Shown here: positions 1-24,206 of the stretch, piece after piece
Position numbering within the stretch: the stretch's first letter is position 1
Layout of the letters: each line of letters starts with the position of its first letter
Sequence record: PQ231202.1
Source of the DNA: Escherichia phage BSBP01
Length of the DNA: 54,030 nucleotides
Strand: one strand, 5' to 3'
Notes under the pieces: model-generated
Told to the model about the DNA's origin: nothing
What the model saw: the letters and a program-made list of their open reading frames with translations, nothing else
The model's database searches: none
Made by a program: the position numbers and the translations under genes

Positions 1-127
1 TCGGGATGAGGAGTAACCCAAATAAAAGCCTGAACTTTCTTTCTGCACAACACAATCAGCGCAACTAAGCCGTATCGCTACGGTATGCCAGACGCTCTCT
101 TGAGCCTTTTGAACAGAGGCATAACTG
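1..127. repeat. Exact 127-bp direct repeat of 53904-54030 (terminal redundancy or circular-assembly overlap)
   Basis: First 127 nt are identical to the last 127 nt of the window. Confidence 0.9.
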
Positions 128-749: not shown

Positions 750-959
750 TCACTGTCGGGTAAGTTTGGAACACTTTTGTGCCCACGTTTCATTGTGGAC
801 TAAAATCTGTGTTTTGGTTTCGCGTGACAAAACTTTCACTTCTGCAACATCCAAATAGATTGGTTGTGCAATTAAGCAATAATCACTTACGAACCCACTT
901 TGAGAGCAACTCACTATCGACATTGCTATCAGAACTGCTAGACACTTCTTTCTGAACAT
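750..959 (-). CDS. Putative o-spanin (outer-membrane lipoprotein), overlapped with the i-spanin in another frame
   Basis: ATG at 959 inside ORF 750..1076; N-terminus MFRKKCLAVLIAMSIVSC has a lipobox (IVS-C); short Cys-containing mature part. Confidence 0.45.
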   Translation of the reverse strand: MFRKKCLAVLIAMSIVSCSQSGFVSDYCLIAQPIYLDVAEVKVLSRETKTQILVHNETWAQKCSKLTRQ

Positions 960-1119
960 GCGTTTTAATCTCGATAGATTCTTTAATGGAATCGAATTGC
1001 TTCTCTGTGGCTTCCTGACGCTCCTCGGCTTTGCCTGAGCTTTTGCCTTTGAGGAACACTGCAATAATAATACCAAATGCAGTCAGGACGCCAAGAACTA
1101 TTGATTTAAGCTGTTGCAT
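883..1119 (-). CDS. Putative i-spanin-like type II membrane protein
   Basis: ATG start with AAGGTGA Shine-Dalgarno upstream; single N-terminal TM segment then charged periplasmic domain; o-spanin start embedded in it. Confidence 0.4.
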   Translation of the reverse strand: MQQLKSIVLGVLTAFGIIIAVFLKGKSSGKAEERQEATEKQFDSIKESIEIKTHVQKEVSSSSDSNVDSELLSKWVRK

Positions 1120-1831
1120 AAATCACCTTAGATGGCGCACGCACCACTTGAGCAGTCGTTGTCGCCAGCACCAGGAACGATTGCTTCTTCGTCCTGCTTT
1201 TTCTTGAGTTCTTCAATTGCTTCTTCGGCAGCACCGAAGTCTAAATTATCAAGTGCATCAAAATCCATGAGGACTCCAGTGTTGCGGGTTATTAAAAATA
1301 GCCCAGAGCCGTTATGCAGATATTAACAATTGTCTGCGAACGGGCTGGGCTTGGTAAGGTGGGGGGGTTTTGATAACGCAGGTTTTCCCGAACTGCGAGG
1401 CTTGTAGCAAGACAGCCGCATTACTTTGCGAATGCCAGCAGGATTGATAGTCCGACCGTCTTTGCTTAGGCAACCTGATTTAATCTACCTTTGTAGATAC
1501 CATCGGTTAGAGCAGTTTATTTCCATGCTAAGGGCAACTCACTTTAAATGAATTAAGTTTGTACTCTGTCACACTGCATCGCCCAGGTGTGCAGCCTAAG
1601 GTTGTCGGTTCATCGCAGAATACAAATTAATTATTGCTCCGATTTATTAATCACATCTCGAAGCCACAATGCGCCAAATTTGGTTACGTGGGATTGGAAG
1701 ACCACGGAGAGGACTTAAATTTAATTAAGCCGCAACTCGCATTTCAGAATCATTTGCACTTGTGTTTAAATGAATAAAACAGTCGCAATAACTCCAGGCA
1801 GTTTAGGCCCGTCGTAAGACTCAGAAAACTA

Positions 1832-1890
1832 CTTCAATAACACCACTCGTAAGTAATGTTATTGAAGCCCACTCTTCCTTTCAGAGTGGG
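1832..1890 (-). terminator. Two tandem perfect hairpins (10-bp and 8-bp stems) followed by a U-rich tract on the minus strand
   Basis: cttcaataac..gttattgaag and cccactct..agagtggg inverted repeats, about 77 nt downstream of the stop of gene 1967..2305. Confidence 0.3.
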
Positions 1891-1966
1891 TTCAAGGCAG
1901 CACCGGAAAACTTCCAGTGCATGCCAGATCGATTTAGCCTAGTCTCTCAAGTTTGCCATCGGCAAC

Positions 1967-2305
1967 TTAGAATACCGGAGCTTCTTCAACAGCAGCTTCA
2001 GCAGCTTCTGCAACACTTGCGTCAGCAACTTTAGCTTCTTTCGGAGTATCGAACTTAGTACGCTCAACTTCCGGCTCACCAGATTCAACCCACGGCAGGT
2101 AGAATGCCAGGAACTGCTCGATGGTGTTCTTCTGCATGGAGCGAGAACGGTCGATAGCGCCAACGGTGTTCAGGTACGCTTCGGCAGCTTTCTCAATTTT
2201 AGCACCGTTTTCCAGTTTGAAGTCATGTGCATTACACTCTGCTTCGGTCAGGAACAGGGAACCATCGTTAGCTTCGTACTGAGTTACGGTTACAATCTTA
2301 GCCAT
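1967..2305 (-). CDS. Hypothetical protein with acidic Ala/Glu-rich C-terminus ending in Phe
   Basis: 112-aa ORF; C-terminus AEAAEAAVEEAPVF. Confidence 0.55.
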   Translation of the reverse strand: MAKIVTVTQYEANDGSLFLTEAECNAHDFKLENGAKIEKAAEAYLNTVGAIDRSRSMQKNTIEQFLAFYLPWVESGEPEVERTKFDTPKEAKVADASVAEAAEAAVEEAPVF

Positions 2306-2380
2306 TTGTATATACCTTATATTGAATAGTTTTGCACGCCACGGTGACGTGACTTAGATAAAATTAAAGAGCCTTTCTCT

Positions 2381-2406
2381 TTCCACATCCAACTAATGTT
2401 TCAGAA
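2381..2406 (-). promoter_or_regulatory. Copy 1 of conserved intergenic motif (plus-strand TTCAnnTCCAACTAATGT), candidate phage RNAP promoter
   Basis: Near-identical about 20-bp element recurs 7 times, always intergenic and in the same orientation upstream of minus-strand genes. Confidence 0.3.
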
Positions 2407-2428
2407 CTGCTCTGATTCGTCAAACGAC

Positions 2429-3103
2429 TCAATATCTATTGAATCGTTCTAGTGTTTTATTTACTAAATCCTTTGTCTCATCGACAGTGAGTTCAGTGAT
2501 GATTGATTCGTCATAACCCTCAATCTGGATTGCTACAAAACGCCCAACTCCAGTCACAGTGAGTCGGTTTGTTCTGTCACGAACAACTACACCAGCTTCT
2601 TGCGCGACTGCTCGCAACAATTTCCAGCGTAAAGTTCGATTTGGCACAGCAAAGCCCTTTGCCGAGAACAACTCTTTCATGAGTTCTCCAAGACAAACAG
2701 CTTCAATGTTTTGTCCTCTTCCAACTAATTCTTGCAACAGGCACAGTGTCAACATTTCTAAATTGTTGAAGTGTCCAGCGCGCTCCAAATTAAAGAACTC
2801 TGGAGGAACAGTTGAACGAGATTTAACAGCTTGCTTATATGCACGTTCTTCTTCCTGTGCAGCAAGCATTAGCATCTCTGGCTTGATGTATTTCATAGCA
2901 GAGAAGCCAGCGCGTGTGGCTTTAATTATGCGACAAGCCTCTTTCATCTTGTAGCGTTGCCACTCACCGCGCTTCGATTCTGGATTAAAATGGACCCACA
3001 TAATGATAACATCTTCCTTGGCAAGATAGACGGCATCATTATCATTGAGCCATTGCTTACACGTTGATAGTGCAATCTCTTTGTCATCATCATGATAAGA
3101 CAT
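2429..3103 (-). CDS. Hypothetical protein
   Basis: Long ORF; start placed at internal ATG (MSYHDDD) 2 nt past the stop of the upstream gene. Confidence 0.55.
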   Translation of the reverse strand: MSYHDDDKEIALSTCKQWLNDNDAVYLAKEDVIIMWVHFNPESKRGEWQRYKMKEACRIIKATRAGFSAMKYIKPEMLMLAAQEEERAYKQAVKSRSTVPPEFFNLERAGHFNNLEMLTLCLLQELVGRGQNIEAVCLGELMKELFSAKGFAVPNRTLRWKLLRAVAQEAGVVVRDRTNRLTVTGVGRFVAIQIEGYDESIITELTVDETKDLVNKTLERFNRY

Positions 3104-3104
3104 T

Positions 3105-3431
3105 TTAGTGGCCTTGTAGGATACGTTTGTTCGCAGTTTCTGCGTCGATTCCCAAATCAACTAATGTCACCAAGCACTGCGAAATCCGCTCTTGCGCAGC
3201 TTTCTCCAGAATTTGGTATTTTTCGTTGTCAACGCCTAACACATTCTTGGCATGAATGAGTGTAGCCATTAGACCATGACCCAAAGCAACAGCTTGCATT
3301 GCCTGGAGTTCAAAGTTAATTGTGATGCCAGCGAGTTCGTGCTCTTTCTGGATAATCTCAATCAACTCTTCTTTAGATTTGTCTTGTAAGTTCAAAATGG
3401 AACTCCGTAAACTGGTTGGTTTGTTGTCCAT
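3105..3431 (-). CDS. Hypothetical protein
   Basis: 108-aa ORF in the co-directional gene array. Confidence 0.5.
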   Translation of the reverse strand: MDNKPTSLRSSILNLQDKSKEELIEIIQKEHELAGITINFELQAMQAVALGHGLMATLIHAKNVLGVDNEKYQILEKAAQERISQCLVTLVDLGIDAETANKRILQGH

Positions 3432-3712
3432 TCGCGGGTTGCGATTTGCATGGACTTGTTTGGGCCGCAGTAGAAATATTTCTTAACTTCTGCAAGGGTG
3501 TATTTAGCACTACATTCGAGTATATCTTTGAAAGTGTGCTTCCAGAACCCGTCCTTCTCAGAAATTCTTACGGTGAAGTTGTTGGTCCCGTTGTAATACC
3601 AACGCCCACCAACGAGAACGAAGTGGATTGTTTCTTCCTCCTCTTCCCCACTTGGCGAAGACATTAGCACATTTCTTAACGTCAAAACTTTAGCAGAATG
3701 CTTACGAACCAT
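3392..3712 (-). CDS. Hypothetical protein
   Basis: ORF 3392..3736 with start moved to the internal Met to limit overlap. Confidence 0.45.
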   Translation of the reverse strand: MVRKHSAKVLTLRNVLMSSPSGEEEEETIHFVLVGGRWYYNGTNNFTVRISEKDGFWKHTFKDILECSAKYTLAEVKKYFYCGPNKSMQIATREWTTNQPVYGVPF

Positions 3713-3911
3713 TTTGCAACTCCTTAATTTTGGCAATTAAGTCGCGCATGATTTTAGGGCCAATAGCCAAGTCACCAGTCATATCATAAAGGTCACTGCC
3801 TATTGCTTTTGCATTATTCTCCCAACCCTCAATAAGTTCTAACAATTCTTCAATTGTGTAGCCCTTAAACTGAAAGTTTTCGTTATTAATTACGCCGTAT
3901 TTTTGAACCAT
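3702..3911 (-). CDS. Hypothetical protein
   Basis: 69-aa ORF. Confidence 0.45.
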   Translation of the reverse strand: MVQKYGVINNENFQFKGYTIEELLELIEGWENNAKAIGSDLYDMTGDLAIGPKIMRDLIAKIKELQNGS

Positions 3912-4460
3912 AGGAACTCTCCAATTTTCGATTCAGTGTTTGTGACTTCTCTTCTCATCTTTTGGCCCATGAAACAGGCCACAGAGTTGCGAAAATAGCC
4001 CTGTTTTAGGGCCATAGTCCAACCGTTTGTGTCAATTCTGGATAACTGCATTGGCGAAGGGTTACTCCCGTTAGGGTGCGGCCTACGCATCATATCTGCA
4101 TAGCAGCCTGGCAAGCTGCGGAGGCCACAGAGGCTTTGCAACCCTTCCCAATACATTCACCCAATCCACCTGCTTTGGCATAGCTGGTGGCGCGGTTTTG
4201 TGCGGATTATGCCACTCTAAGCCCTGTTTGTCCGACTTCCTCAGAGCACCAGCAGCTTGTGGCACAAACCTATTTTCGAATGACTAACATAAGCATGAGG
4301 CACAACCCTCTAATTATTCAGCCCTAACAGCTTGCTTATTTAGTTCCAATTCATCCCAATACATCGCCTATAACAAGTGAATAGCTTTTCTGCGAAGAAG
4401 TATTCCGGCCCTTTGGCCTATGTTAAAAAGATAAATGTATATGATGGAAACATTCCATCT

Positions 4461-4550
4461 TGAAGTTCCCTCGCGCAATCGGAAGGACTCGAACCTTTCA
4501 CTCCACCCTTGTGCACAGGGCTTCTACCCAGACGATATGGAAGGAACTTC
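4461..4550 (-). ncRNA. tRNA-like structured element (non-canonical; possibly degenerate tRNA)
   Basis: Minus strand carries a T-arm-like AAAGG-TTCGAGT-CCTTC, an anticodon-like hairpin GCCCT-GTGCACA-AGGGT and a closing stem GAAGTTC/GAACTTC, but spacing is not canonical. Confidence 0.2.
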
Positions 4551-4564
4551 AATGATGTTGTCTC

Positions 4565-4589
4565 TTCAATTCCAACTAATGTTTCAGAA
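4565..4589 (-). promoter_or_regulatory. Copy 2 of conserved promoter-like motif
   Basis: cttcaattccaactaatgtttcagaa. Confidence 0.3.
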
Positions 4590-4651
4590 TTATTCCAATA
4601 TTCCAAACAAAAAGAATAATAAGAATAAAATTAAATAAATGAAGAAAGTGC

Positions 4652-4681
4652 TTGACACCCATTTGGCGATAAGTGTATAAT
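4652..4681 (+). promoter_or_regulatory. Near-consensus sigma70-type promoter on the plus strand (TTGACA-N18-TGnTATAAT)
   Basis: TTGACA at 4652-4657 and TATAAT at 4676-4681 with TG at 4674-4675 and an AT-rich upstream tract; points opposite to all genes. Confidence 0.35.
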
Positions 4682-4706
4682 GCCTTTCTTCCCTAAGAGG
4701 TCAGAA

Positions 4707-4730
4707 TCAAATTCTACTAATGTTTCAGAA
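4707..4730 (-). promoter_or_regulatory. Copy 3 of conserved promoter-like motif (variant)
   Basis: tcaaattctactaatgtttcagaa. Confidence 0.25.
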
Positions 4731-4791
4731 TTAAGCCGAAGGCCAATGCGAGTACAAAACCCGCTTGGCACTTCGACGGAACAGCCTGGAA

Positions 4792-5028
4792 CTACACTGC
4801 CTTCCAATCTGAATCAAACAGTTCCTTCGGTCTTGTATAAATTATCGAATTAATTCCCAAGAAAGTATGATTTCCATACTTCTTAACTTCCTGGTAAGCA
4901 AACCCATCTACCCAATTGCCGCAGTGGGTTTTAATCTTTGTAGCAAACAGAATTCGATAGTAGTGACCACGAGGCTGGTGGAAGAGAATATCTTCTGGCT
5001 TGATTGAGTTGATATTTAAATCAGACAT
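4792..5028 (-). CDS. Hypothetical protein
   Basis: 78-aa ORF overlapping the next gene by a few nt. Confidence 0.45.
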   Translation of the reverse strand: MSDLNINSIKPEDILFHQPRGHYYRILFATKIKTHCGNWVDGFAYQEVKKYGNHTFLGINSIIYTRPKELFDSDWKAV

Positions 5029-5563
5029 TTAGGAATAATACTCCTTCAGAGAAGATATAGTCGCTGCCGAAGTCTTTCACAATTGCTTCCCAATCAATAT
5101 ATGGTGCAAGGCGGTCTGGAATATCCAGTGCTTCACTTTGCTTGAAGTAGTCTGCAATTGAATCGCAACGAGTAATGAACATGTCGTTCAAATCATTCAC
5201 AGTGAAAATATCAATATCACCACTGCGGAATGCTGCAAGAATTACATCCAAATCGGTGTCAACAAGCAGCTCATTGAACTTATCATACTTGCGAATGCTG
5301 AACAGGCCATTGGCAAAGCAAACTTCTGTTACATCTGCTTCACTTGATTCAAGTATGTCATAAGTCCCATCTTCTGGGTATTCGATGCCGTATTCTTCAT
5401 GCAAATAATCCCGCATGTCGAAATCATAGTGACGCCAAGACAGGCCATCAATCCACGCATCTACAAATTCAGAATTAGTTTCGCCTGTGTAGAAACGAAC
5501 CAATAAGGTTTCATCTCTACGCCAGGACTTAAGATTTTCTATTGCTTGGATAATGGTGCTCAT
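5021..5563 (-). CDS. Acidic protein, possible ArdA-like antirestriction (DNA mimic) protein
   Basis: 180 aa, highly Asp/Glu-rich; C-terminal segment resembles the ArdA C-terminus by eye. Confidence 0.4.
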
Positions 5564-5838
5564 ATGCTCTCCATTGTGTCAGTTAATGCACTATGTATTT
5601 TACGAAGTTTTACTAATCTTTCCTCGCTATTTTTAATAAGCGTCCGCATAATAGCTTCTTTCTCATTGAAGCTAATTTTCATGGAAGTTTCTCCAACCTC
5701 CATATAAGCATTTAATCGAACTTCATCGCTTAGATTCAGCGCAGACATTTGATGCAATTCTTTCTTTGCCTTATCTATACGGGCATAGTGATGCTGAATC
5801 TCTGCTGGTATGTCTTGATAATTCATCGGATTCTCCAT
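5560..5838 (-). CDS. Hypothetical protein
   Basis: 92-aa ORF. Confidence 0.45.
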
Positions 5839-5846
5839 TGATGAAG

Positions 5847-6260
5847 TTATGCTGGAAGTTCGAAGTGCGGCATATCAATCAGCTTCTTCTTACCTGGTGC
5901 AAGTGGTGGATACGGCTGATTTTCATCAATACGGCTCCAGTTCCCACCCCAACGAATGGTAATTCCAAGCTCTTTTGCAGCTTTGAACATGTGATGAGCT
6001 AAAACTTTGAATCGTTCGAGGTCATTCCAGTCAATTGGATATGGTGCAATGTCCAAAGCGTTACCAGACATGTGTCGGCTTACTGAAACTTTGGTTGCAC
6101 CTTGTTTTAACAGTTCTTGTTGACGTTCATAAGAGCGTAAACCTTCCAAAACAGTCACATCAAAAGGCATGGTTTCACATGCCCGTTTGAAAACTGCAAC
6201 TAATGAAGGATTTACTCCCTTAAGTCGGTCTAAAGAACGTTGACCGAGCTTAACATTCAT
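5847..6260 (-). CDS. L-alanyl-D-glutamate peptidase (M15 family) endolysin-type enzyme
   Basis: [11 protein letters not shown] and DMPHFE zinc-ligand motifs typical of M15 peptidases such as the T5 endolysin. Confidence 0.75.
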
Positions 6261-6535
6261 TATTTGCCCTTTAACGCATCGTTTAAAGTGTTGTTTAACA
6301 GTGTGTTGAGGTTATCAAGTTCATCAAATGATGCCTGAGCCTTGGTAACTTCATCAACAAGTAATGCTCGAAGTACTGCGTGCTCAACAAGCACCCATCC
6401 GTCAATACAGTCGATGAAAACTTTAACTTTATCAACTGGAGCATTTAAATCAAAGGCCGACAAGTCAGATTTGGCATTATCTAGCTTACCTTTTGCCTTG
6501 CTTAGTTCAACTGGAACTTGGTCAATCGAAATCAT
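6260..6535 (-). CDS. Hypothetical protein
   Basis: 91-aa ORF, start adjacent to the stop of the upstream gene. Confidence 0.45.
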   Translation of the reverse strand: MISIDQVPVELSKAKGKLDNAKSDLSAFDLNAPVDKVKVFIDCIDGWVLVEHAVLRALLVDEVTKAQASFDELDNLNTLLNNTLNDALKGK

Positions 6536-6765
6536 TGAAAGCTATTCCCACTAGGGTGAATGGTTAATTTGAAGGATACTAACTCTTTATTGATTGAGGT
6601 TGTTCCAATAACTGTTGCCTCAAACAACATAGATTTAGAAGTTTCCTTCCCCACACGTTCCAAGTATTTTACAACTCGGTCGTGAATTACTGCCCACTGG
6701 CGATATTCGCAATCAGATTCCAGCAGGTATTGAACCCCATCAATGGTAAATTCGGTTGAAGTCAT
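6532..6765 (-). CDS. Hypothetical protein
   Basis: 77-aa ORF with 4-nt overlap coupling. Confidence 0.45.
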   Translation of the reverse strand: MTSTEFTIDGVQYLLESDCEYRQWAVIHDRVVKYLERVGKETSKSMLFEATVIGTTSINKELVSFKLTIHPSGNSFQ

Positions 6766-7121
6766 TTCTTCTCCGCACAGCTGGTGGATAAGATAGGGTA
6801 GTTTGCTTTGAGGAAGTCTCCGTCACGGAAAATCTGAAGTACAAGTTTGTCTTCATGATTTATAAACAGTGCAGCAAACCTGCTATCTTTAATGTTGTAA
6901 AACAAAACTGTTGCAGGATTGGGTTCATCACTTGGAACCTCTATCCAAACACCAGCTTCAGGAATTATTGACGCAATCAGAGGTTGGCTATCTCCAATAT
7001 TATCAATTACAAGAGCATATGCTCCACATTTGAAGTTCTTTGTTGACGCTTTAGACTCAAAGCTGAAGAACGCCAAAACAATTAATGCTAAGGTATAAAT
7101 AATGATGTATTTAAGTCTCAT
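6762..7121 (-). CDS. Putative secreted protein
   Basis: N-terminal signal-like hydrophobic segment MRLKYIIIYTLALIVLAFFSFESKA. Confidence 0.45.
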   Translation of the reverse strand: MRLKYIIIYTLALIVLAFFSFESKASTKNFKCGAYALVIDNIGDSQPLIASIIPEAGVWIEVPSDEPNPATVLFYNIKDSRFAALFINHEDKLVLQIFRDGDFLKANYPILSTSCAEKK

Positions 7122-7173
7122 AATTCCTCCAATAATTAATCGAGGCCACTCGAAGTGGAATGACCTCTGTTAA

Positions 7174-7878
7174 TTACAGCTTCTTGATAAGCTCTGCGGA
7201 TTTGCTTGCAGCAACTTTCATTTCATCGCGTGCGGCTTTAGAGATTGATGCCTTGTCCACGCGAATATTACAGTTACCAACTGCAATCTTGCCATCTTCT
7301 GTTGGCGGAAGCTGAGTTAACTCCAGCATTTGCTCTAGCTTTTGCAGAAGAATGCGTTGTGCTTCGATTGCATTTTGAATATTTAATGTTTCCATTACTG
7401 CTCTCACCTTTCTTGAGAATGTTCCAGTTAGTGCCAGGCGTACTTGCAAACCTTTGACGCCAGCATAGTCCACATTCACTTTATTGGCTGGCGAATGTGG
7501 ATGTTTGTACACGTTTGTTACAGTTGCCCAATTGCCATTTACCCAAATAACATCGCCAACTTCCACATCTTTTCCGAGAACATCTTCTTCATCGGATATT
7601 TCCTGCTTCTTGAACTCCTCCACAGGAAGGAATACTGGATTTATTTGGTTAGGGAACTCAATTGTTGGGGTTTCCAAGGCTGGTGGTCTGTCAAGCAACT
7701 TGACTATACGACCAAGTTCAAAATTAAAGTACCCACCAGAATATTGCAGTTGAACTACATCACTAAATCGAAGTATATTTACAATTAAATATTCTCTGTT
7801 GTTATAGACTAATACATCACCAGTTTTAACCAGATTGGCTGGTATTTCGACAACCTTAGTTCCCATGATATTCCTCAC
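7174..7878 (-). CDS. Hypothetical protein
   Basis: 234-aa ORF. Confidence 0.55.
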   Translation of the reverse strand: MRNIMGTKVVEIPANLVKTGDVLVYNNREYLIVNILRFSDVVQLQYSGGYFNFELGRIVKLLDRPPALETPTIEFPNQINPVFLPVEEFKKQEISDEEDVLGKDVEVGDVIWVNGNWATVTNVYKHPHSPANKVNVDYAGVKGLQVRLALTGTFSRKVRAVMETLNIQNAIEAQRILLQKLEQMLELTQLPPTEDGKIAVGNCNIRVDKASISKAARDEMKVAASKSAELIKKL

Positions 7879-7987
7879 GCATTACTGCACAGTGTTTGCA
7901 AACCCAAATGGTTACATAATCGTTTTCGTGTGAAATTTCCCAATTATGTAGCCCTATAAAACATAAGATTTTCATAGGGCATCTCTA

Positions 7988-8365
7988 TTAGAACGGAATG
8001 TCGTCGTCGAAGTCTTTCGGCTCGTTCGGGTTGTAGTTGCTATTCTTCGTCTGTTGCTGAGCAGGTGCTTGCTGTTGTGCAGAAGGTTGCTGGCGTGGCT
8101 GTTGCTGTTGAGCGGCAGCTTGAGGTTGAGCTTTGGCTTTAGCTTTCTCTTCACGCTTACGCATCATTTCATCAACTTGTTCCTGAGTCATGATGGTGAG
8201 TTCCAATGAGGTAAATTCGGTGTTGCCAGCTTTCTTATTCCAGCCAGACACCCAATACCAGATACCTTCTACGTTAATGCGACCACGAACATCTGGATGA
8301 TTTTCAGCTTTCTTGAAGCTGTTGTTGCCCAGAATACCAGTGTTTAAATCGTTGAATTGTGCCAT
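7988..8365 (-). CDS. Small SSB-like protein ending in the host SSB tail motif DFDDDIPF
   Basis: N-terminal about 60-aa domain, Gln/Ala/Pro-rich linker, C-terminus DFDDDIPF matching the E. coli SSB tip as recalled. Confidence 0.55.
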   Translation of the reverse strand: MAQFNDLNTGILGNNSFKKAENHPDVRGRINVEGIWYWVSGWNKKAGNTEFTSLELTIMTQEQVDEMMRKREEKAKAKAQPQAAAQQQQPRQQPSAQQQAPAQQQTKNSNYNPNEPKDFDDDIPF

Positions 8366-8437
8366 GATTAATTTCTCTTTAAGTTAATTACAGTTTAAGT
8401 TTCAGTGACATTGCTAACCACGGAATAGCTTTGTCTC

Positions 8438-8458
8438 TCTTCAAATCCAACTAATGTT
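8438..8458 (-). promoter_or_regulatory. Copy 4 of conserved promoter-like motif
   Basis: cttcaaatccaactaatgtt, about 75 nt upstream of the SSB-like gene. Confidence 0.3.
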
Positions 8459-8499
8459 AGATTAATCATGGACACCTACAAGAGATGCCCATTGTTAAT

Positions 8500-8733
8500 T
8501 TAACGAGTCAGTTTGTCAAAGTACCACATATCTTTGGTAATCCACTCACCGCTTGGTGATTTAATGTAGCAACTACCATTGATTGTGTATTTGAACTCTG
8601 CTTGCTGCAATTCTGCAAAGGTTTTGCATTCATATTTGTAAACAAAGTATGTAGGCAGTCCAATGACAACCAGAACGGACAGCAACATTAGTACGAAAGG
8701 CACTACAATATCTTTCATAACCCAATTCATCAT
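8500..8733 (-). CDS. Small membrane protein
   Basis: N-terminal TM segment VVPFVLMLLSVLVVIGL. Confidence 0.4.
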   Translation of the reverse strand: MMNWVMKDIVVPFVLMLLSVLVVIGLPTYFVYKYECKTFAELQQAEFKYTINGSCYIKSPSGEWITKDMWYFDKLTR

Positions 8734-8832
8734 ATCCCCGCTTGTAGAAGGAGTAGGTTTGCAAAACCCAGAATAACTGTAAGTATAACGACACTGATAG
8801 TGAGTGTCAGTATTATATATTTGATACTGCCC

Positions 8833-9120
8833 TCACATTACCTTTGATACAGGAATTGGGTCGATTGTGGTTTCAGGTTTATACCAACTTACTTCGCCAG
8901 AATCTTTAACAAGCTCCCACAAATTGGAGAATGTACGATAAGATAAATTGCGGTTATCATCATTAACGACAAAACCCAAAGGAGATTGAATATACGCACC
9001 GAGTGTACCGTTGTTGCGAGGAACCCCGTCACCACGACCTGCGACGATTTTGTATTCTTTACCGTTGGTAAAGTTGTAATTTGTTTTACCAACATAACGC
9101 AAAATTGAATTCTTGTTCAT
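8833..9120 (-). CDS. Hypothetical protein
   Basis: 95-aa ORF. Confidence 0.45.
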   Translation of the reverse strand: MNKNSILRYVGKTNYNFTNGKEYKIVAGRGDGVPRNNGTLGAYIQSPLGFVVNDDNRNLSYRTFSNLWELVKDSGEVSWYKPETTIDPIPVSKVM

Positions 9121-9437
9121 TTCTTAACTTTCTCCCATTTAGATAGGCCACCTTCGAGGTTGAAGATGCGGTTACAACCAGACTCATCTTTAATGACAAA
9201 TTGAGTTCCGGTCAATTGAATTGGCTCAAGTGCACCAAACAGCACTTTAGGTTTTGATAGGCTGGTGGCAAGAACAACATAAACTTTGCTTGGGCAAATA
9301 TCAAAAGCAAAGTCACGAGTGTAAACCAAATCACCAACTTTCAAATATGCTGGCAACATGCGACCTGTGGCTGGGTCACGCTGTAAACGAGTACGCTGTT
9401 TCATAAATGCTCCAAGTTGATTAATAATATTCAGCAA
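9117..9437 (-). CDS. Hypothetical protein
   Basis: 106-aa ORF. Confidence 0.45.
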   Translation of the reverse strand: MLNIINQLGAFMKQRTRLQRDPATGRMLPAYLKVGDLVYTRDFAFDICPSKVYVVLATSLSKPKVLFGALEPIQLTGTQFVIKDESGCNRIFNLEGGLSKWEKVKK

Positions 9438-9466
9438 CCACTCTCGCTACAAAGTGGTTGAGGAAA

Positions 9467-9697
9467 TTATTTGACTTCTTCCCAAGACCAGATTCCACCC
9501 TCCAAAGGAACACTTTCTCCTTCTTCAAAGTACGAATAACCATTGGCGTCTTTACGGTCGCTGTCTTTTGAAATACTTATGCGAGGCTCGATTCCATAAC
9601 CTCGCTTCACATGCATAACCCTTCCCTCAATCACATCACCAACCTTTGGTGAGTTTGCTCCATAAGAGGTTGATTTTACACATTTAAACTTTGTCAT
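9467..9697 (-). CDS. Hypothetical protein, paralogue of 9694..9921
   Basis: Shares N-terminal KFKCV-ST and a W-W motif with the adjacent ORF. Confidence 0.45.
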   Translation of the reverse strand: MTKFKCVKSTSYGANSPKVGDVIEGRVMHVKRGYGIEPRISISKDSDRKDANGYSYFEEGESVPLEGGIWSWEEVK

Positions 9698-9921
9698 TGT
9701 AATGCGCCTTGTTCACAAATGTCTGCAAATTCTGCACGATGGTCACGCTGCCATGTCCAGAATGCACCATTCATAGGAACGACAGCACCTTTACGGAATG
9801 CTGGAGAAATGCTTTCAGCAGATTTGGTTACTTTAAATTCCAAAGGCGAAATAGCTTCACCTTCAATGATTAAGCCAACTGGAACGTAGTCTTTGGTTGA
9901 AGCAACACATTTAAATTTCAT
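9694..9921 (-). CDS. Hypothetical protein, paralogue of 9467..9697
   Basis: Tandem duplicate, see above. Confidence 0.45.
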   Translation of the reverse strand: MKFKCVASTKDYVPVGLIIEGEAISPLEFKVTKSAESISPAFRKGAVVPMNGAFWTWQRDHRAEFADICEQGALQ

Positions 9922-9923
9922 GA

Positions 9924-10127
9924 TTAACCTTTTGGTGGAATATTTCCACTATTGTCTATTAACTTTCCACGATAAATATTAAACCCACAAGCAACACAGA
10001 ATGCATTATCCAAAACTACAGGACCATACATTCCAACTGCTTCATGTGCAACATGGTCTACATCAATGCTATTGCAGCGAGGACATATTACTACATCCTC
10101 TTCGTCAAAGTTCATGATATAAAACAC
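9924..10127 (-). CDS. Small zinc-ribbon protein
   Basis: CPRC...CVAC cysteine pairs. Confidence 0.45.
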   Translation of the reverse strand: MFYIMNFDEEDVVICPRCNSIDVDHVAHEAVGMYGPVVLDNAFCVACGFNIYRGKLIDNSGNIPPKG

Positions 10128-10410
10128 CTAATTCTGATTCAAGTTTAAATTCACGAAAGAAATCCAATGTTACAAATCGGATTTTACCTTCATCATCAAC
10201 TACGTTACAAGACATTTCGGAATGGACCATACGGCCCATCTTCAAGGCGACTTCTGAAAGGTTTGCTTCACCAGTTCCAGATATAACACGGTAAATCTTA
10301 TACGGCTCGAAACCTGCCAAAGAGTTATTACGGCGTGGTACGAGCATCATGCCAGTTTTAGTAGCCATAATAACTCCGATATTAAAAGTACATGAATGCT
10401 CCAACAACAA
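10105..10410 (-). CDS. Hypothetical protein
   Basis: 101-aa ORF. Confidence 0.45.
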   Translation of the reverse strand: MLLEHSCTFNIGVIMATKTGMMLVPRRNNSLAGFEPYKIYRVISGTGEANLSEVALKMGRMVHSEMSCNVVDDEGKIRFVTLDFFREFKLESELGVLYHEL

Positions 10411-10465
10411 GGAACACGAGTGGGAACATCAGAATACAGAATACAAGTTTCTTTACAATATCCAT

Positions 10466-10684
10466 TTATTTCACCAGGAAGTAGAGAACAATCAGGAATC
10501 CAACACATGCAATAATGGTTGGCATATACTTATCACGAGCACGAGGAACATATTGTTGCTGTTTAGTCTTGCCTTCCAAATGATTCATTAATTCAGTATG
10601 ATTCATTTGTTGCAGAAATGTGTTGAATTGCTGGTCGTTCATTATTTGTTCCTTAGCTTTACATTCTTCCCAACAAGTACACAA
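10466..10684 (-). CDS. Small tail-anchored membrane protein
   Basis: C-terminal TM segment IIACVGFLIVLYFLV. Confidence 0.35.
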   Translation of the reverse strand: MCTCWEECKAKEQIMNDQQFNTFLQQMNHTELMNHLEGKTKQQQYVPRARDKYMPTIIACVGFLIVLYFLVK

Positions 10685-10981
10685 TCTTTAAGCCATCGTG
10701 TTTTTAGATTTGCTGGGAACCAGGATTTAAATTCTTCGGAGTAAACCCTTGTGAAATGGAATTCGGGTGTGGTTAGTATGAGCATCCCACCACCAGTTCT
10801 TAGTAGCAGATTCTCGTAACTCACTTAATACTCCAATTCCCAAATACCAGGTTAACTATTTTAGCCACTTTACGTGCTGGCATACGAGGATTTGCAGCTC
10901 TCGCTAATTTCTTAGCCTTACGCTTTGAAGCACCGTACATAGCCATGTAGGTAACCGTTTTGGTCATATATTTGAGCTTCT

Positions 10982-11164
10982 TCATTTTCCACTCCGAGCA
11001 GCATCAAGCTGTTCTTCAAGAAGATTGATGTGTTGGCCTAAGAACAAGGCCATTTCACGAGAAATTACAACAGATTCGATTTTCGGATTTTCTGCCACTT
11101 GCTTAACACCTTGCAGGAAACTCCAAAGACTCACTTCTTCATTTTCGAACATGGTTAACCTCAA
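10982..11164 (-). CDS. Hypothetical protein
   Basis: 60-aa ORF. Confidence 0.35.
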   Translation of the reverse strand: MRLTMFENEEVSLWSFLQGVKQVAENPKIESVVISREMALFLGQHINLLEEQLDAARSGK

Positions 11165-11394
11165 TAGAAGTTTGCTGCCAGATTTTCCAACACTTTGACA
11201 GTCAAAACATCATCGTTAAGTTGTTGGAAAGTGATATCAATCCCAACTTCATCTTTAATACGAACAACAAGCTCACTTAAAATAGTGTCAGCCCAACCAC
11301 AATAGTTGACAATAATTCTCTCTTGAAGGAATTCTACTTTCTCTTCGTAAGAGGCCAACTCGATTAAGTCAGCCTTTAATTTAAACTGTGTCAT
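11161..11394 (-). CDS. Hypothetical protein
   Basis: 77-aa ORF. Confidence 0.4.
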   Translation of the reverse strand: MTQFKLKADLIELASYEEKVEFLQERIIVNYCGWADTILSELVVRIKDEVGIDITFQQLNDDVLTVKVLENLAANFY

Positions 11395-11579
11395 CTTGCC
11401 TCCAGAATTTGATTTAATCCACTGAACACGATTTCTTCATGTTCGTCAGTTGTACATGCATTGATGTAATCAAAGTCATAACCAACAAACTTCTCCGCCC
11501 ACTCCTGTAAACGAAGTAAAGAATTGAAGTACAACCTTTGCTCTACACCATTTAATTTGAAGAAGACGATGAAGTCCAT
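11391..11579 (-). CDS. Hypothetical protein
   Basis: ORF 11391..11663 trimmed to the internal Met to avoid overlap. Confidence 0.35.
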   Translation of the reverse strand: MDFIVFFKLNGVEQRLYFNSLLRLQEWAEKFVGYDFDYINACTTDEHEEIVFSGLNQILEAR

Positions 11580-11581
11580 GA

Positions 11582-11824
11582 TTAGCCTCTTACTTTCAGG
11601 AAGTCTGGATGTGCGGCAGTTGCCACAACTTTGTGATGTTTGTCGTTCTGGATTGCTTGCCAAACATATTCAGGATATGCGGCATTCTTCCACACCAGTT
11701 TGTTTTCGTAAATTGATGTGCCACACATTAGGTCTGCCAACATTATTGCTCTGGTCCTAGTATTAACCAAAGCATGAGAAACAACGCCATCACGATTAAT
11801 GTATTGATAGAGTGCATAATTCAT
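11582..11824 (-). CDS. Hypothetical protein
   Basis: 80-aa ORF. Confidence 0.4.
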   Translation of the reverse strand: MNYALYQYINRDGVVSHALVNTRTRAIMLADLMCGTSIYENKLVWKNAAYPEYVWQAIQNDKHHKVVATAAHPDFLKVRG

Positions 11825-11826
11825 AA

Positions 11827-12033
11827 CTAAACTCCGTATCTCTTGTATTTGTCGCCTTTGGAGACTTCCAAATATTCCTCAAATGTGAAAGTCCTCTCCT
11901 TGCTGTTTAATCTTGCCAACGACAAGTCTGCAACAAATTCGGCATTAAAACCTTTGTTAGAGGTCTTTCTCATGTGTGCCCCACCTCGTGTAAAGAATGT
12001 TGCACCTTCTGGTAAATCTTCGAAATTAGTCAT
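11827..12033 (-). CDS. Hypothetical protein
   Basis: 68-aa ORF, first gene after the repeat-rich non-coding region. Confidence 0.4.
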   Translation of the reverse strand: MTNFEDLPEGATFFTRGGAHMRKTSNKGFNAEFVADLSLARLNSKERTFTFEEYLEVSKGDKYKRYGV

Positions 12034-12323
12034 TTTATTCTCCTAAGTTAAAAGAAAACTCCCTACAGAACGATTGTGGAGGTCTTGTCTTACCTCAGTC
12101 CACCTTAAAGTTGTAGGGAGTTATATAGTATTCCTGTGTGTGCCGCCATCAGGGACTTCCTAGTCTGGTGGGCGCGTCGCAATCCAGCAATATACCACAC
12201 GTTTTTCACAGGCTATATATGTGACACACAAAGTGTCTAAAAACTACAATGATTAGCTTGGAGACATAATCTCTCTAAAATCTGTCACACAATTTCAGCA
12301 GAATTTACAGAGATTTGGTCTTA

Positions 12324-12340
12324 TTCACATGCAACTAATG
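12324..12340 (-). promoter_or_regulatory. Copy 5 of conserved promoter-like motif (variant)
   Basis: ttcacatgcaactaatg. Confidence 0.25.
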
Positions 12341-13238
12341 ATAAATGGACATGCTTAATTGCAACTAACTCATCTGCCAAATAGACGAATTTTGTCACAA
12401 TTAAACATGCGTCATTAATTACAGGTTTACTCCCATCTTGGAATGTATTTGGCACATTAAGATTGGAGCAAGTAGGTACGGAAAACCGACCATGTACAGC
12501 ATAATAAAACAAATTAAATAAAGGGTTTTATCCCAATATTGTCACAATATTACATGCGATGATAAAGCCTTCGCTTGGCTGGAAGCCAGTATTCATGCGG
12601 GTTGCAAGAATATTGGGTCAATACTGATACAGCTATTACATGCGAAATTGGCACAAATACTGTTACAAAATTAACATGCCAGATTGGTAGACGATTGTAT
12701 CTTCGAGGTGATTAGTCCTCTAACAATTCTGCCACATTCCAACATGCCAATTTGTAGCAATATTTACATGCCATACTGCGACGCAATTGTCACAATATTT
12801 GTTGCTCAAAATCGGGGCGGCTTCTGCGTGTAAACGAGAGGCTTTGCTCCGACTCTTCTCTTCTTTCGAATTCTGATTGAAAGAAAGAAGCATGTCCAAA
12901 AGTTCCAGTCTTGTAAAAGTTATCTCCCGGCTTGTGGGTGGGCCTTGATAATAGGAGTAACAGGTTGTCCGCTATTTTGTGCACTGAGCTAGGATTGAAT
13001 CCAGATTGCACTTTACTAGGTGGCGAACCAAGATTGAAACTAATAGACATGCTATAGGTGAAGTACAAGTTTCGAAGTATATAATCCTACTCTTTGCCAT
13101 GGTTGCTGGAACTATGGGTAGCTAATCCAGGGAGTTCGACAATTGCCACATTGCCACAACACTTTGACTCAAGCTGTCATGCTGAATGTTTCTAGAATGA
13201 TTCAACATTACATGCGGAATATTTATCCGTATTCTTTT

Positions 13239-13258
13239 ACTTCACATCCAACTAATGT
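13239..13258 (-). promoter_or_regulatory. Copy 6 of conserved promoter-like motif
   Basis: cttcacatccaactaatgtc, just downstream of the RNAP gene. Confidence 0.3.
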
Positions 13259-13361
13259 CGAATATTGAAACAATATTACATGCAGCAATATTGCTTGAAT
13301 ATTGGGATTTAGTTGTTGATGCACAAGAATAGGGCCAGTGTTTCCACCAGCCCCGTTTCTC

Positions 13362-15302
13362 TTATTGACAGAAGTAGTAAGCGTGTTCGCTCATCAGAAG
13401 CTCTTCGGTTACGATGTTCTCATGATACATCTGAATGCCACCGAGTTGCTTAGACAGATTCTCGAATTGATTGTTGGTTACGAAGATTTCAACATATGCT
13501 GCACGAATAACTTCCATCATACGTGGAGCATCTGCCAAACAGCAACGGAAACAATCGTGGATTGAAGTGAAACCACGAAGACCAGCTTCTTTAGCTTTAA
13601 CAGCAACAGTACGAGCAACCAATGCGTCGATACCTTGAATATAGTTGACTACGAAAGTACGCTTGAATTCCTCTTTAGTAGGATTGGATTCACGAATGGT
13701 CCAAGGTTTCTCTTCCTGAATCTGGCCAAAGATAACACGAGTTTGAGAGTCAACACGAATGCTGAATGCATCACAGATTTCACGAGATGGGAAGCAAGGC
13801 TTCATTACAACCTGACCATCAGTGTGCTTATAGGTGATGTATTCCTTGTTAAGCTCAACACAACGTTGATATGCAGCATCAGCAGCTTTCTCAATGAACA
13901 TGTTAATCTTAGCACCCAATGCGTTATGGATTGCTTCCACACACAGTTCAGCAAATGCCTCAGCCTTCTCAACTGGAATCTGAAGAGATGCAGTCATGTA
14001 AGAGATAAAGTCAGAAGAACCAGTTAAAGCAGCTTTACCACCACCATACTGAATAGCCATGTATGGAGTTTTGATAAACTTACGACCAGCTTTCGGATTC
14101 AAGAACTCTTCCATGATTTCAACAGAAGGTTTCATTGAAGACTTATCCAGCAGCTTCAACAGTTCACGAAGACTCAACTGGTATGGGTCAGATGCTTTAG
14201 TCTCAGAATCAACCAGACCTGTTGCACGAGCCATTTCCATGTTACCAGCAATGAATGCCAGATACTGAGTACCAGAACATTTAGCATCTAAGCCAAAGCC
14301 TACACGAGAATCGCATTCACCTGTAGTCTCAAACTTGAACCAATCCAGAGCCAGACGAACATAAGTGAATGGCTTAGAAGGACGTTCAGCTTTAGGCATG
14401 TTCATCATGCGAGCAAGTGAACCAGCTGGATTCTGAGCAACATAAGTTAAACGTTTAGCAGAGCACCAGTCTCCACCAGAAATGTCTTCCAGCTCAGCCA
14501 TGAACATGTTGTATGCAATGGTAGTAGAACCATCTTCGTTAAACTTCTTAACGATGTTCTCAACATTGTGAGAATACAAGCAACGAGCAAAGTCAGAGGA
14601 TTGTGGGTTAGGACCAGCACATGCTACATGATACAGGCGACCACGGTTATCAGCAAAGTAGTCAGAATAGAGTGTATCCTGAGTCATCATTGCTACAGCA
14701 TTGTTCCAAACATGGAGTTCAGTCTGGATTGCTTCTGGCATCTGCAAGCCACCATAAGTACGTTGTTCAAGCATGGACTGGATGATGCGAACCATCTCAG
14801 TCTCCACATGGTACTCAGTATCTTGCAGGAATTCGATTGCAGCTTTCAGAGTTTTGGATGGCTTAACTTTGCCACCTTTAACGAAAGGCTTGCGACGAGA
14901 TTCAGATGTAACACGCTCAGTGAATGGCACTGCTGTGTCTTTGGTTGTAACCAGTTCAACCCATGTGTCAGTTTGTTGGAATGACTTGTCTTCGTTCATG
15001 GTGATGAAGCCGAAGTGCTTAGCCAGACCAATGAGGTTGATAGCTGGGTCAACATAGTGCATTGCTTTCAAATCGTTGTTGTAGCGATTGGCATCAGCAA
15101 TAGAAGCAGAAGCCAGCTCAACCATCGCAATGGCAGGAACAACATCATCACGTGTGAAAGACGTCATCATCTTGAATATGGCTAAGGCAGCAATAGCACA
15201 AGTCTGAGGCTGCATATAGTTCTGCTTCTCTTTGGCACGGTATACCAGAGCAGTGATAGCAGGAACAACAGATTTGATAGTTTGAGTGGTGATAGTAGTC
15301 AT
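13362..15302 (-). CDS. Single-subunit T7-like DNA-dependent RNA polymerase, N-terminally minimal (646 aa)
   Basis: Motif A LDAKCSGTQY, motif B RKFIKTPYMAIQYGGG, motif C TSIHDCF and a VNYIQGID segment align to T7 RNAP catalytic motifs. Confidence 0.8.
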   Translation of the reverse strand: MTTITTQTIKSVVPAITALVYRAKEKQNYMQPQTCAIAALAIFKMMTSFTRDDVVPAIAMVELASASIADANRYNNDLKAMHYVDPAINLIGLAKHFGFITMNEDKSFQQTDTWVELVTTKDTAVPFTERVTSESRRKPFVKGGKVKPSKTLKAAIEFLQDTEYHVETEMVRIIQSMLEQRTYGGLQMPEAIQTELHVWNNAVAMMTQDTLYSDYFADNRGRLYHVACAGPNPQSSDFARCLYSHNVENIVKKFNEDGSTTIAYNMFMAELEDISGGDWCSAKRLTYVAQNPAGSLARMMNMPKAERPSKPFTYVRLALDWFKFETTGECDSRVGFGLDAKCSGTQYLAFIAGNMEMARATGLVDSETKASDPYQLSLRELLKLLDKSSMKPSVEIMEEFLNPKAGRKFIKTPYMAIQYGGGKAALTGSSDFISYMTASLQIPVEKAEAFAELCVEAIHNALGAKINMFIEKAADAAYQRCVELNKEYITYKHTDGQVVMKPCFPSREICDAFSIRVDSQTRVIFGQIQEEKPWTIRESNPTKEEFKRTFVVNYIQGIDALVARTVAVKAKEAGLRGFTSIHDCFRCCLADAPRMMEVIRAAYVEIFVTNNQFENLSKQLGGIQMYHENIVTEELLMSEHAYYFCQ

Positions 15303-15368
15303 TTGTAAGTCTCCAAGATTGTGTATGATTTAACTGAAACGGATTATAATAGCGTAGCCATTACACAA

Positions 15369-15384
15369 TTCACTTCCAACTAAT
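15369..15384 (-). promoter_or_regulatory. Copy 7 of conserved promoter-like motif, about 70 nt upstream of the RNAP gene
   Basis: ttcacttccaactaat. Confidence 0.3.
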
Positions 15385-15550
15385 ATCACAAACCTGTGCC
15401 ATTGTTACAACAGCACGGAGACTTTGACCTTGACCCATAAGCGAAGCGCCTAACTTGGTGTTGTTTGAAAGCCGATAGGCTGTAGGAAAAAGTTGGAGTA
15501 GGGACCGTATTTAAGTCCGATAGGACGTTGGGCTTCCCCTCCCCGCTGGC

Positions 15551-15815
15551 CCAAAAATAAAATTATAATATTGCCACAATTCTAGTCTCGTTAATATCGT
15601 AACAATTCGAGTATCGTAGCTTTGTTACGAATTCTAGTCTCATTAATTCTGTAGCAATATTGAAAATAAAAAAAAAATTATAAAAAAAATTATTTAATAG
15701 TCGGTTTTCCATTCGAACAAATTTCGGCGAGATACAGTTGACCGACCATGTACCATTTGGTTTTAACTTTACGCATTCCTAATATTACTCTTAATATTGT
15801 AGCAATATTGGGAAT
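15551..15815. repeat. AT-rich non-coding region with direct and inverted repeats and poly-A runs
   Basis: aattctagtctc at 15578 and 15630; inverted repeat cgtaacaa/ttgttacg at 15598-15629; TGTAGCAATATT copies also seen in the 12.3-13.3 kb region. Confidence 0.45.
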
Positions 15816-15925
15816 AAATAAATATTTAATTTACTTGTCTTATTCTAGCTCAAAGAGAAACGACGCTAACGCATCGAATCTCTTCTCGCATATAACTGAC
15901 AAACGTCAGCCTTCACCGTATCCAA

Positions 15926-23051: not shown

Positions 23052-24206
23052 TTATGGTGTTTCAGTGAAAACTACAGACGCAGATGTGGCTACAGCCTTC
23101 TTGTCAATGTCCAGTTCGATTGTAGCAATTCCAGTTGGACTTACAGAAGTACCAATGAATAATGAATCAACCTGAACACCGTTAGTAGCGTCCATGATAG
23201 GCTTGAAACATTCTGACCAGATAACAGAATCACCTGGATTCAGGGAGTTGATATACTCCATCATAGCCGTTTGCAACTGGCGTGCCGCATCGTTGGAACT
23301 AATATTAGAACCAGGGCGACGCTTGAATGTACCAGTTACATAAATGGTTGCATCTTCTGGACGACTGAACTTAATTTCGTGCGAATAGCCTTTACTATCG
23401 TAGATAGATACGGATGTAGTACCATGGGTAGGAACACCGCCCGTTTTGGAGGAATAAATTCGACGAGCAATTTCGTCTTCTGTTCCACCCTCTACGACAA
23501 CAAATACTGTACCCGAAGGCTGAGTCCCAATAGGAGCGCCGGTATCATTATCACGAATACGAATGTAAGAAAGATTAAGGTCAGCGAGTGCAGCGTAAAT
23601 AGCTTCAACAAATGCTGAACCGCTGTGCGCAGTAGTTCTGTCACGGCGGATACGAAGTGCTGGGTCAGACTCATAATCCACACCTGTTTGCCCAATCTCT
23701 GGGTTGTTAACTGATTCCCAACCTGCGACTGTGGTAACAATTTTATTAACAGTGTTAGCAGCAATGTAATATTCTCCAGACTCAGTTGCTACTGCCGTAA
23801 CAGTTCCTGGAATAATACAATCATACTGTGTTTTGAAATTCATTGTCCCGTCACTGACAATAGAGCCAGCAGGGACAAGAGTGCCAGCCTGACCAACACA
23901 ACGAACACCAACACGAGATGGCCAATTGACCAATCGCTTTGTGAAGGTCAGTTCGCAGATGTTGTCCAGACCAACCTTCTGCATTGCACCAGGACGATAG
24001 GCATTGAATACCATTTCAGCCTGTTGCCAACACTTAGAAATTTCTTCTGAAATAATTCCAATAACCTGTCCATCTGGGCCTTCTGGACTAATGTCGAAGT
24101 TGGCACCGAACACGCTACGGAATCTGCTATTAATGTGCGACACGATTTCTTGAACAGGCTTCTGTACGAACCCGTTTTCAGTCACGCCGTACTGGATTGT
24201 TGCCAT
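23052..24206 (-). CDS. Baseplate J-like protein
   Basis: 384 aa; overall resemblance and position typical of Baseplate_J. Confidence 0.6.
   Translation of the reverse strand: MATIQYGVTENGFVQKPVQEIVSHINSRFRSVFGANFDISPEGPDGQVIGIISEEISKCWQQAEMVFNAYRPGAMQKVGLDNICELTFTKRLVNWPSRVGVRCVGQAGTLVPAGSIVSDGTMNFKTQYDCIIPGTVTAVATESGEYYIAANTVNKIVTTVAGWESVNNPEIGQTGVDYESDPALRIRRDRTTAHSGSAFVEAIYAALADLNLSYIRIRDNDTGAPIGTQPSGTVFVVVEGGTEDEIARRIYSSKTGGVPTHGTTSVSIYDSKGYSHEIKFSRPEDATIYVTGTFKRRPGSNISSNDAARQLQTAMMEYINSLNPGDSVIWSECFKPIMDATNGVQVDSLFIGTSVSPTGIATIELDIDKKAVATSASVVFTETP

Follow-up and report, generated by a model that had tools for sequence, protein, structure and literature searches.

Escherichia phage BSBP01 (sequence record PQ231202.1; 54,030 nucleotides (nt), analysed over its whole length and called the window below) carries a gene that a first-pass annotation described as a minimal, 646-amino-acid (aa) T7-type single-subunit RNA polymerase (RNAP), lacking much of the promoter-binding N-terminal domain and paired, unusually, with a contractile-tail module. 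The locus raises the question of whether so short a protein is a complete polymerase and, if it is, which sequences it would transcribe from and how unusual it is. Homology and predicted fold show that the gene is genuine and encodes an intact RNAP of the T7 single-subunit type. The coding sequence starts with ATG and is the longest open reading frame (ORF) possible at the locus; because it is preceded by an in-frame stop codon, the RNAP cannot exceed 646 aa in the window. The gene and its putative ribosome-binding sequence are placed as follows.

13362 to 15302, minus strand: RNAP coding sequence, 646 aa, 72.7 kDa, stop codon included.
15310 to 15315, minus strand: Shine-Dalgarno-like TGGAGA, 7 nt 5' of the RNAP ATG.

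The protein matches Pfam PF00940 (RNA_pol) over residues 323-621 with 67.5 bits, against a curated cut-off of 22, and PHROG 414 'RNA polymerase' with an E value of 1.6e-96. It is 98% identical to the annotated RNAPs of SKA49, PO103-1 and DE15, and the DNA of the RNAP region is 94% identical to that of Escherichia phages vB_EcoM_DE15 and ST32. In ST32, ORF1 is tabulated as an RNA polymerase of 646 aa and 72.7 kDa with an isoelectric point of 6.09, values identical to those that we calculated for the window RNAP, and the Shine-Dalgarno-like sequence given for that gene (ST32 Table 2) is also TGGAGA.

Motifs A, B and C, which the first-pass annotation had recognised, are all present and align with T7 D537, R627-G640 and H811/D812, respectively. 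The landmarks of the region shared with T7 RNAP, in the order of the protein, are these.

14673 to 14846, minus strand: thumb region, shortened, residues 153-210 versus T7 317-413.
14637 to 14651, minus strand: DNRGR, the T/DxxGR motif, residues 218-222, aligned with T7 DWRGR 421-425; D218, R220 and R222 are invariant.
14265 to 14300, minus strand: motif A, GFGLDAKCSGTQ (contains GLDAKCSGTQ), with the catalytic D339 corresponding to T7 D537.
14040 to 14084, minus strand: motif B or O-helix, RKFIKTPYMAIQYGG, with R407, K411, Y419 and G420 corresponding to T7 R627, K631, Y639 and G640.
13683 to 13805, minus strand: fingers beta-hairpin region, residues 500-540, occupying the T7 specificity-loop position and presumably equivalent to that loop.
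13545 to 13571, minus strand: motif C, FTSIHDCFR, with H582/D583 corresponding to T7 H811/D812.

The catalytic residues were set onto their T7 equivalents by phmmer, by hhalign (98% probability) and by a profile search (E 6e-17), and with all three methods the aspartates D339 and D583 fall on T7 D537 and D812. In the profile search, a comparison proposed by the first-pass annotation, N4 gp16 was matched with an E value of 9e-5. An alignment of 66 RNAP family members, which is the basis for our calls of invariance and for the AlphaFold2 model, shows D339, R407, K411, Y419, G420, H582, D583 and the DNRGR segment to be invariant or nearly so, while the position of T7 H784 is occupied, in this alignment and with hhalign, by an invariant Gln (Q556). 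The hhalign register pairs residues 153-603 with T7 RNAP 317-832. The model is confident (mean predicted local distance difference test score (pLDDT) 92.8; predicted template modelling score 0.87), and a Foldseek search with it returned T7 RNAP as the best PDB match (E 4e-19), the fold being nearest to solved single-subunit RNAPs rather than to DNA polymerases. The length aligned in the structural comparison corresponds to residues ~153-646, so the thumb-palm-fingers core is complete, with every catalytic residue kept. Beta-hairpins are predicted at residues 506-537 and 100-110, the linear positions of the T7 specificity loop and intercalating hairpin.

Compared with T7 RNAP (Autographiviridae; PDB 1CEZ, 1QLN, 3E2E), the enzyme is 237 aa shorter, and the motif A aspartate is preceded by 338 residues rather than 536, close to the ~330 versus ~537 counted by the first-pass annotation. 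In the hhalign register the N-terminal domain accounts for 164 of the missing residues (152 versus 316), the thumb for 39, the fingers segment between motifs A and B for 22 and the remainder of the protein for 12. Pfam RPOL_N (PF14700) matched neither the full RNAP (E<=1) nor residues 1-152 (E<=0.01), nor did it match two longer RNAP family members, and the positive control, T7 RNAP, was matched over residues 36-322 with an E value of 1.2e-34. With hhalign, the first 170 residues had no demonstrable homology to the N-terminal domain of T7 (T7 1-340; 0.9% probability). The N terminus is nonetheless more than a simple gap, and a conserved and confidently folded module of ~150 aa is found there. 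In the AlphaFold2 model, residues 1-120 fold into five helices plus a beta-hairpin (100-110), with pLDDT values over 90. The model suggests that the ~316-residue N-terminal domain of T7 is replaced by a conserved ~150-residue helical and beta-hairpin module with a winged-helix-like topology, followed by a conserved basic segment that presumably contacts nucleic acid.

14856 to 14903, minus strand: conserved basic segment ESRRKPFVKGGKVKPS, residues 134-149, with R136 and S149 invariant and lower pLDDT.

The length of 646 aa was confirmed, but on comparison with its homologs it is the norm for a broad clade and no peculiarity of BSBP01. The 120 closest homologs are mostly 630-660 aa long, and a profile search covering 1.8 billion cluster representatives (50% identity clusters) gave 113 representatives at E<=1e-30, of which the full-length ones are mostly 610-760 aa. 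Proteins of T7 size (780-860 aa) appeared only at about E 1e-25 or weaker and were aligned only from query position ~145-165 onward. The annotated start codon varies among records, giving RNAPs of 617, 646 or 705 aa. In some relatives the RNAP gene has an inserted or duplicated stretch of ~150 nt at its 5' end (Mangalitsa 211-385 versus window 15296-15316), which the window lacks; it gives these relatives a 58-aa N-terminal extension and an annotated RNAP of 704-705 aa (cluster P0001, 271 member sequences).

The pairing of such a gene with a contractile tail, put forward by the first-pass annotation as unusual, is already known, the RNAP being the hallmark enzyme of the Chaseviridae. The ICTV, the international body for virus taxonomy, describes this family by a myovirus structural module together with a single-subunit RNAP, a genome of 52-56 kb and genes on one strand. 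Contractile-tailed phages with a T7-type polymerase have been known since 2008, as far as later papers and the GenBank notes on phiEcoM-GJ1 relate, and a 2026 paper still introduces the genus by its 'hybrid' trait. Because the pairing is a published defining trait of the family, the finding is not new. The window fits this layout, with 54,030 nt and 82 selected ORFs that make up 90% of the minus strand. Over positions 1-12500 it is about 90-92% identical to Carltongylesvirus genomes at 75-85% coverage, and its relatives are classified as Chaseviridae; Cleopatravirinae; Carltongylesvirus. From these similarities the window is a Carltongylesvirus genome, and since identity to the nearest records is ~90-94% in the compared parts, BSBP01 may represent a separate species of the genus. 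The RNAPs of phiEcoM-GJ1 (gp01, 648 aa), ST32 (ORF1, 646 aa) and other Carltongylesvirus and Chaseviridae phages are the same gene, with 93-98% protein identity and a like length, first-gene position after the genome end, flanking motif sites and terminator; nothing of substance differs from the Carltongylesvirus RNAPs. As for the tail genes reported earlier, PHROG searches confirmed the sheath and a baseplate wedge, together with the portal, large terminase and major head protein, but the tube candidate (32061-32516) matched only 'virion structural protein'.

32526 to 33974, minus strand: tail sheath gene (PHROGs).
23052 to 24206, minus strand: baseplate wedge gene (PHROGs).

A candidate for the sequence that the polymerase reads is a 16-nt motif, ATTAGTTGGATGTGAA, with nine matches in the window at up to 3 mismatches, all on the coding strand, where 0.86 were expected and 0 of 100 shuffles gave such a result. 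The strong copies (n=6) extend to aACATTAGTTGGAwGTGAAgaga and all lie in the early and middle region.

15361 to 15389, minus strand: promoter-like site GTGATATTAGTTGGAAGTGAATTGTGTAA, 59 nt before the RNAP ATG.
13233 to 13261, minus strand: promoter-like site just 3' of the RNAP gene, with the exact consensus ATTAGTTGGATGTGAA.
12316 to 12344, minus strand: promoter-like site where the gene-free gap ends, before the early-gene cluster.
8432 to 8460, minus strand: intergenic promoter-like site, 67 nt ahead of ORF 7988-8365.
4557 to 4585, minus strand: promoter-like site.
2374 to 2402, minus strand: intergenic promoter-like site, 69 nt ahead of ORF 1967-2305.

None of these sites lies within a credible ORF. 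Five stand clearly between genes, and from three of them it is 59-69 nt to the next start codon. With a position weight matrix the best plus-strand score was 1.8 bits, compared to 9-41 bits for the 12 best minus-strand sites, although the scores of the six strong sites are circular because the same sites trained the matrix. Some late gene blocks are preceded by weaker matches on the coding strand (9-14 bits); the one at 27714-27686, for example, comes immediately after a hairpin, with 6 nt to the next ORF. In Escherichia, Pectobacterium and Proteus phages whose RNAPs are 66-98% identical, the motif occupies the same three positions (in front of the RNAP gene, behind it and at the gap end), and the first two sites are present in Erwinia phage Faunus, where the locus ends about 700 nt past the gene. 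In none of the six genomes compared is the motif accompanied by a -10-like element at constant spacing. Host sigma-70 promoters, considered as the cause of the flank repeats, were rejected: seven sites were found where 11 were expected, and no fixed -10 accompanies either the motif or the GCATG units described below. Being strand-specific, syntenic across genera and free of a fixed -10 or sigma-70 enrichment, ATTAGTTGGATGTGAA is the best promoter candidate for the phage polymerase. A role as phage promoter would agree with earlier in silico predictions, the same motif being annotated in the SA91KD GenBank record as 'promoter similar to phiEcoM-GJ1' (after Jamalludeen 2008) and eight consensus promoters having been predicted for PP101.

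The gene lies, as the first-pass annotation had stated, between two repeat-rich non-coding regions, with 623 nt free of ORFs upstream (15303-15925) and 1328 nt free of credible ORFs downstream (12034-13361), and repeats are well above chance in both. Chaseviridae have a direct terminal repeat of about 3 kb, and the homologous repeat in the window probably encloses the whole RNAP gene.

12855 to 15515, no strand assigned: predicted direct terminal repeat, ~2.7 kb, with the whole RNAP gene inside, by homology to the Mangalitsa PhageTerm annotation.
15303 to 15925, minus strand: upstream non-coding flank, with the nrdB terminator (15861-15876), a palindrome (15793-15809), an A/T run and direct repeats of 29 and 38 nt.
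13331 to 13354, minus strand: intrinsic-terminator-like hairpin directly after the RNAP stop codon.
12328 to 13283, minus strand: array of 13 same-strand GCATG(T) units in the gene-free gap.

The bounds of the terminal repeat (~15515 and ~12855) were mapped from the 3234-bp repeat that PhageTerm annotated in Mangalitsa, and the window holds one copy. By this homology the RNAP gene, lying within the terminal repeat, would be present at both ends of the virion DNA and thus in two copies. The predicted physical left end falls near 15515, ~213 nt upstream of the RNAP ATG, so that the flank beyond 15515 would belong to the right end of the genome and the RNAP flanks would lie at or within the predicted repeat. 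The GCATG array straddles its inner boundary. A terminator is annotated at the equivalent place after the RNAP gene of SA91KD.

The downstream gap contains 13 GCATG copies on the coding strand and a single one on the opposite strand, against ~1.3 expected per strand, and a small palindrome (TTGTnACAA or AATATTG-NNN-CAATATT) comes after many of the units. The gap is conserved, together with its strand bias, in PM1 (11 versus 1), PA_03 (15 versus 0) and Mangalitsa (13 versus 1), with a weaker bias in a Hafnia prophage (5 versus 0). The equivalent 1.3-kb gap of Shewanella phage Spp001, from another subfamily (at 5274-6579, after an RNAP annotated as 781 aa), carries GTGTGA instead (8 versus 0). 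Such different strand-specific words in the two subfamilies suggest co-evolution with a sequence-specific phage protein. The 8-bp palindrome CAATATTG has four of its five genome copies in the RNAP flanks (12541, 13293, 15662 and 15810; the fifth is at 49956), and the best of them make up dyads (AATATTG-NNN-CAATATT) that flank the gene on either side. The only Rfam match in the flanks was a chance microRNA below threshold, and no tRNAs were found there. The ~285 nt that separate the last promoter-like site from the first early ORF (12034-12320, minus strand) contain neither an ORF nor an Rfam match and include a GC-richer block; this stretch could be a leader or a small RNA. For the array, T7 offers two analogies: its primary origin of replication sits close downstream of gene 1, along with two phage promoters, and arrays of short repeats adjoin its terminal repeats.

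Taken together, we consider it likely that the ORF encodes the phage's own DNA-dependent single-subunit RNAP of the T7 superfamily, which would transcribe phage genes from the motif promoters after a first round of expression by the host polymerase. The RNAP gene, as the first gene of the genome and inside the ~2.7-kb terminal repeat, would initially be expressed by host RNA polymerase. Its product would then transcribe phage genes from the extended motif, read by the fingers beta-hairpin at the specificity-loop position and the N-terminal module. The copy before the RNAP gene would provide positive feedback and two further copies bracket the gene-free gap; an intrinsic terminator would follow the RNAP gene. 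Early and middle genes would be transcribed from the motif, and late genes from the weaker sites and by read-through.

Several observations weigh against this scheme. Strong motif copies are limited to ~13 kb of early and middle region, and the late-region matches are weak, some of them within ORFs. A copy precedes the RNAP gene itself, which leaves the source of the first RNAP molecules unexplained, and our search of the flank found no convincing host promoter for the gene. In the literature we found no biochemical or structural study of a chasevirus RNAP, no mapped promoters and no experimental evidence for RNAP activity or promoter use, and the ICTV profile says that chasevirus promoters 'have not yet been identified'.

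Going further, we can propose only tentatively that the chasevirus RNAP is the smallest single-chain T7-type RNAP that is still self-sufficient, with the ~150-aa module and the fingers hairpin reading a ~20-nt promoter (aACATTAGTTGGAwGTGAAg), and that the GCATG array is a polymerase-dependent origin or a signal for terminal-repeat processing. Of the enzymes that have been characterised, N4 RNAP II (gp15, 269 aa, plus gp16, 404 aa; PDB 6DT7) comes closest in size, the chasevirus RNAP being slightly smaller. A review of N4 calls RNAP II 'minimal' and describes it as requiring gp1 and gp2 and binding only single-stranded DNA. Mitochondrial RNAPs (yeast Rpo41, human POLRMT) are much larger (about 1200 aa), with pentatricopeptide repeats and N-terminal extensions, and depend on initiation factors. 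The chasevirus enzyme also differs from that of T7 in being carried by a myovirus whose ~3-kb terminal repeat contains the gene.

As an alternative, the enzyme may be a minimal, factor-dependent polymerase of the N4 RNAP II type, unable by itself to recognise or melt double-stranded promoters and recruited by a host protein or by one or more small proteins of the early phage genes, which would read the motif or open the DNA. We regard this as possible but doubtful. The N4 enzyme is a heterodimer, whereas the chasevirus RNAP is one chain encoded by a single uninterrupted ORF, as the RNAP family members of about 610-760 aa are single chains too, and its similarity to T7 RNAP in the profile search lies far above that to N4 gp16. 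N4 RNAP II promoters consist of a short AT-rich element from -7 to +2, in contrast to a conserved motif of 16-20 nt, as long as the promoters of the T7 group. The N-terminal module is conserved and well folded and resembles DNA-binding winged-helix domains, and a beta-hairpin is found at the specificity-loop position. A polymerase packaged in the virion, as in N4 vRNAP, was also considered and set aside, the RNAP not being mentioned in the proteomics supplement on 4HA13, which is weak negative evidence.

It is also conceivable, although we think it unlikely, that ATTAGTTGGAwGTGAA serves host RNA polymerase or a phage regulator and that the real promoters lie elsewhere, for instance in the GCATGT units. 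The position of one motif copy before a gene whose first expression has to do without phage RNAP, the confinement of strong copies and the view of the ICTV profile all speak for this explanation, as does the fact that the GCATG units are themselves strictly strand-specific and conserved, with a word of its own, GTGTGA, in the other subfamily. The lack of a -10-like element at a fixed distance and of sigma-70 enrichment argues against a host promoter, however, and because GCATG is almost confined to one gene-free kilobase (13 copies there and two elsewhere on the coding strand, counted as matrix hits of at least 10 bits), its units cannot serve the rest of the genome. Their reading as 'half promoters' corresponding to the 3' half of ATTAGTTGGATGTGAA was rejected, since positions that are invariant in the array vary in the promoter-like sites. 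Only three of eight repeat units (six from the array and two upstream-flank palindromes) fold better than shuffled sequence, with delta-G of -3 to -4 kcal/mol, which makes N4-style hairpin promoters unlikely. Finally, a truncated remnant or another kind of polymerase (a primase-polymerase or DNA polymerase), which the deficit of 237 residues and the weak direct phmmer match to T7 RNAP (E 0.006) might suggest, is hardly credible and is refuted as far as sequence and structure can judge; conservation of length across the 120 homologs and 113 distant cluster representatives rules out a pseudogene.

Homologs of the short RNAP were also seen in integrated elements, one in a Hafnia alvei chromosome (52% identical; L007, 6881-13504) and one in a Pseudomonas contig (36-38%; L010, 1-19732), with an integrase beside host genes. 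The Hafnia element keeps the chasevirus order of lysis genes, gap, RNAP, gap and small early genes, and the Pseudomonas element also carries baseplate and sheath-initiator genes. Both resemble temperate relatives of a family that is described as strictly lytic. Elsewhere in the window, a segment of the early region (within 1-12500) is shared at 95-99% identity with 48 records of 'Stx2a-converting' phages, and the 1223-aa virion protein encoded at 27747-31418 on the minus strand (PHROG 19855) contains a stretch resembling a RecE-like exonuclease (~438-636) and a C-terminal stretch resembling a lysozyme or lytic tail protein (~1025-1134).

The occurrence of this gene in a contractile-tailed phage rediscovers a trait that defines an ICTV family and in itself adds little. 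The residual interest would lie in a compact enzyme and its predicted promoters, and in the conserved repeat array beside the gene. The clade supplies a naturally compact (72.7 kDa), single-chain T7-type polymerase with a predicted promoter. If this small RNAP alone recognises a defined promoter of 16-20 nt, it would offer synthetic biology a shorter orthogonal polymerase and would reveal what share of the T7 N-terminal domain can be dispensed with. The conserved array, like the gene's position within the terminal repeat, provides readily testable leads on replication or packaging in the Chaseviridae.

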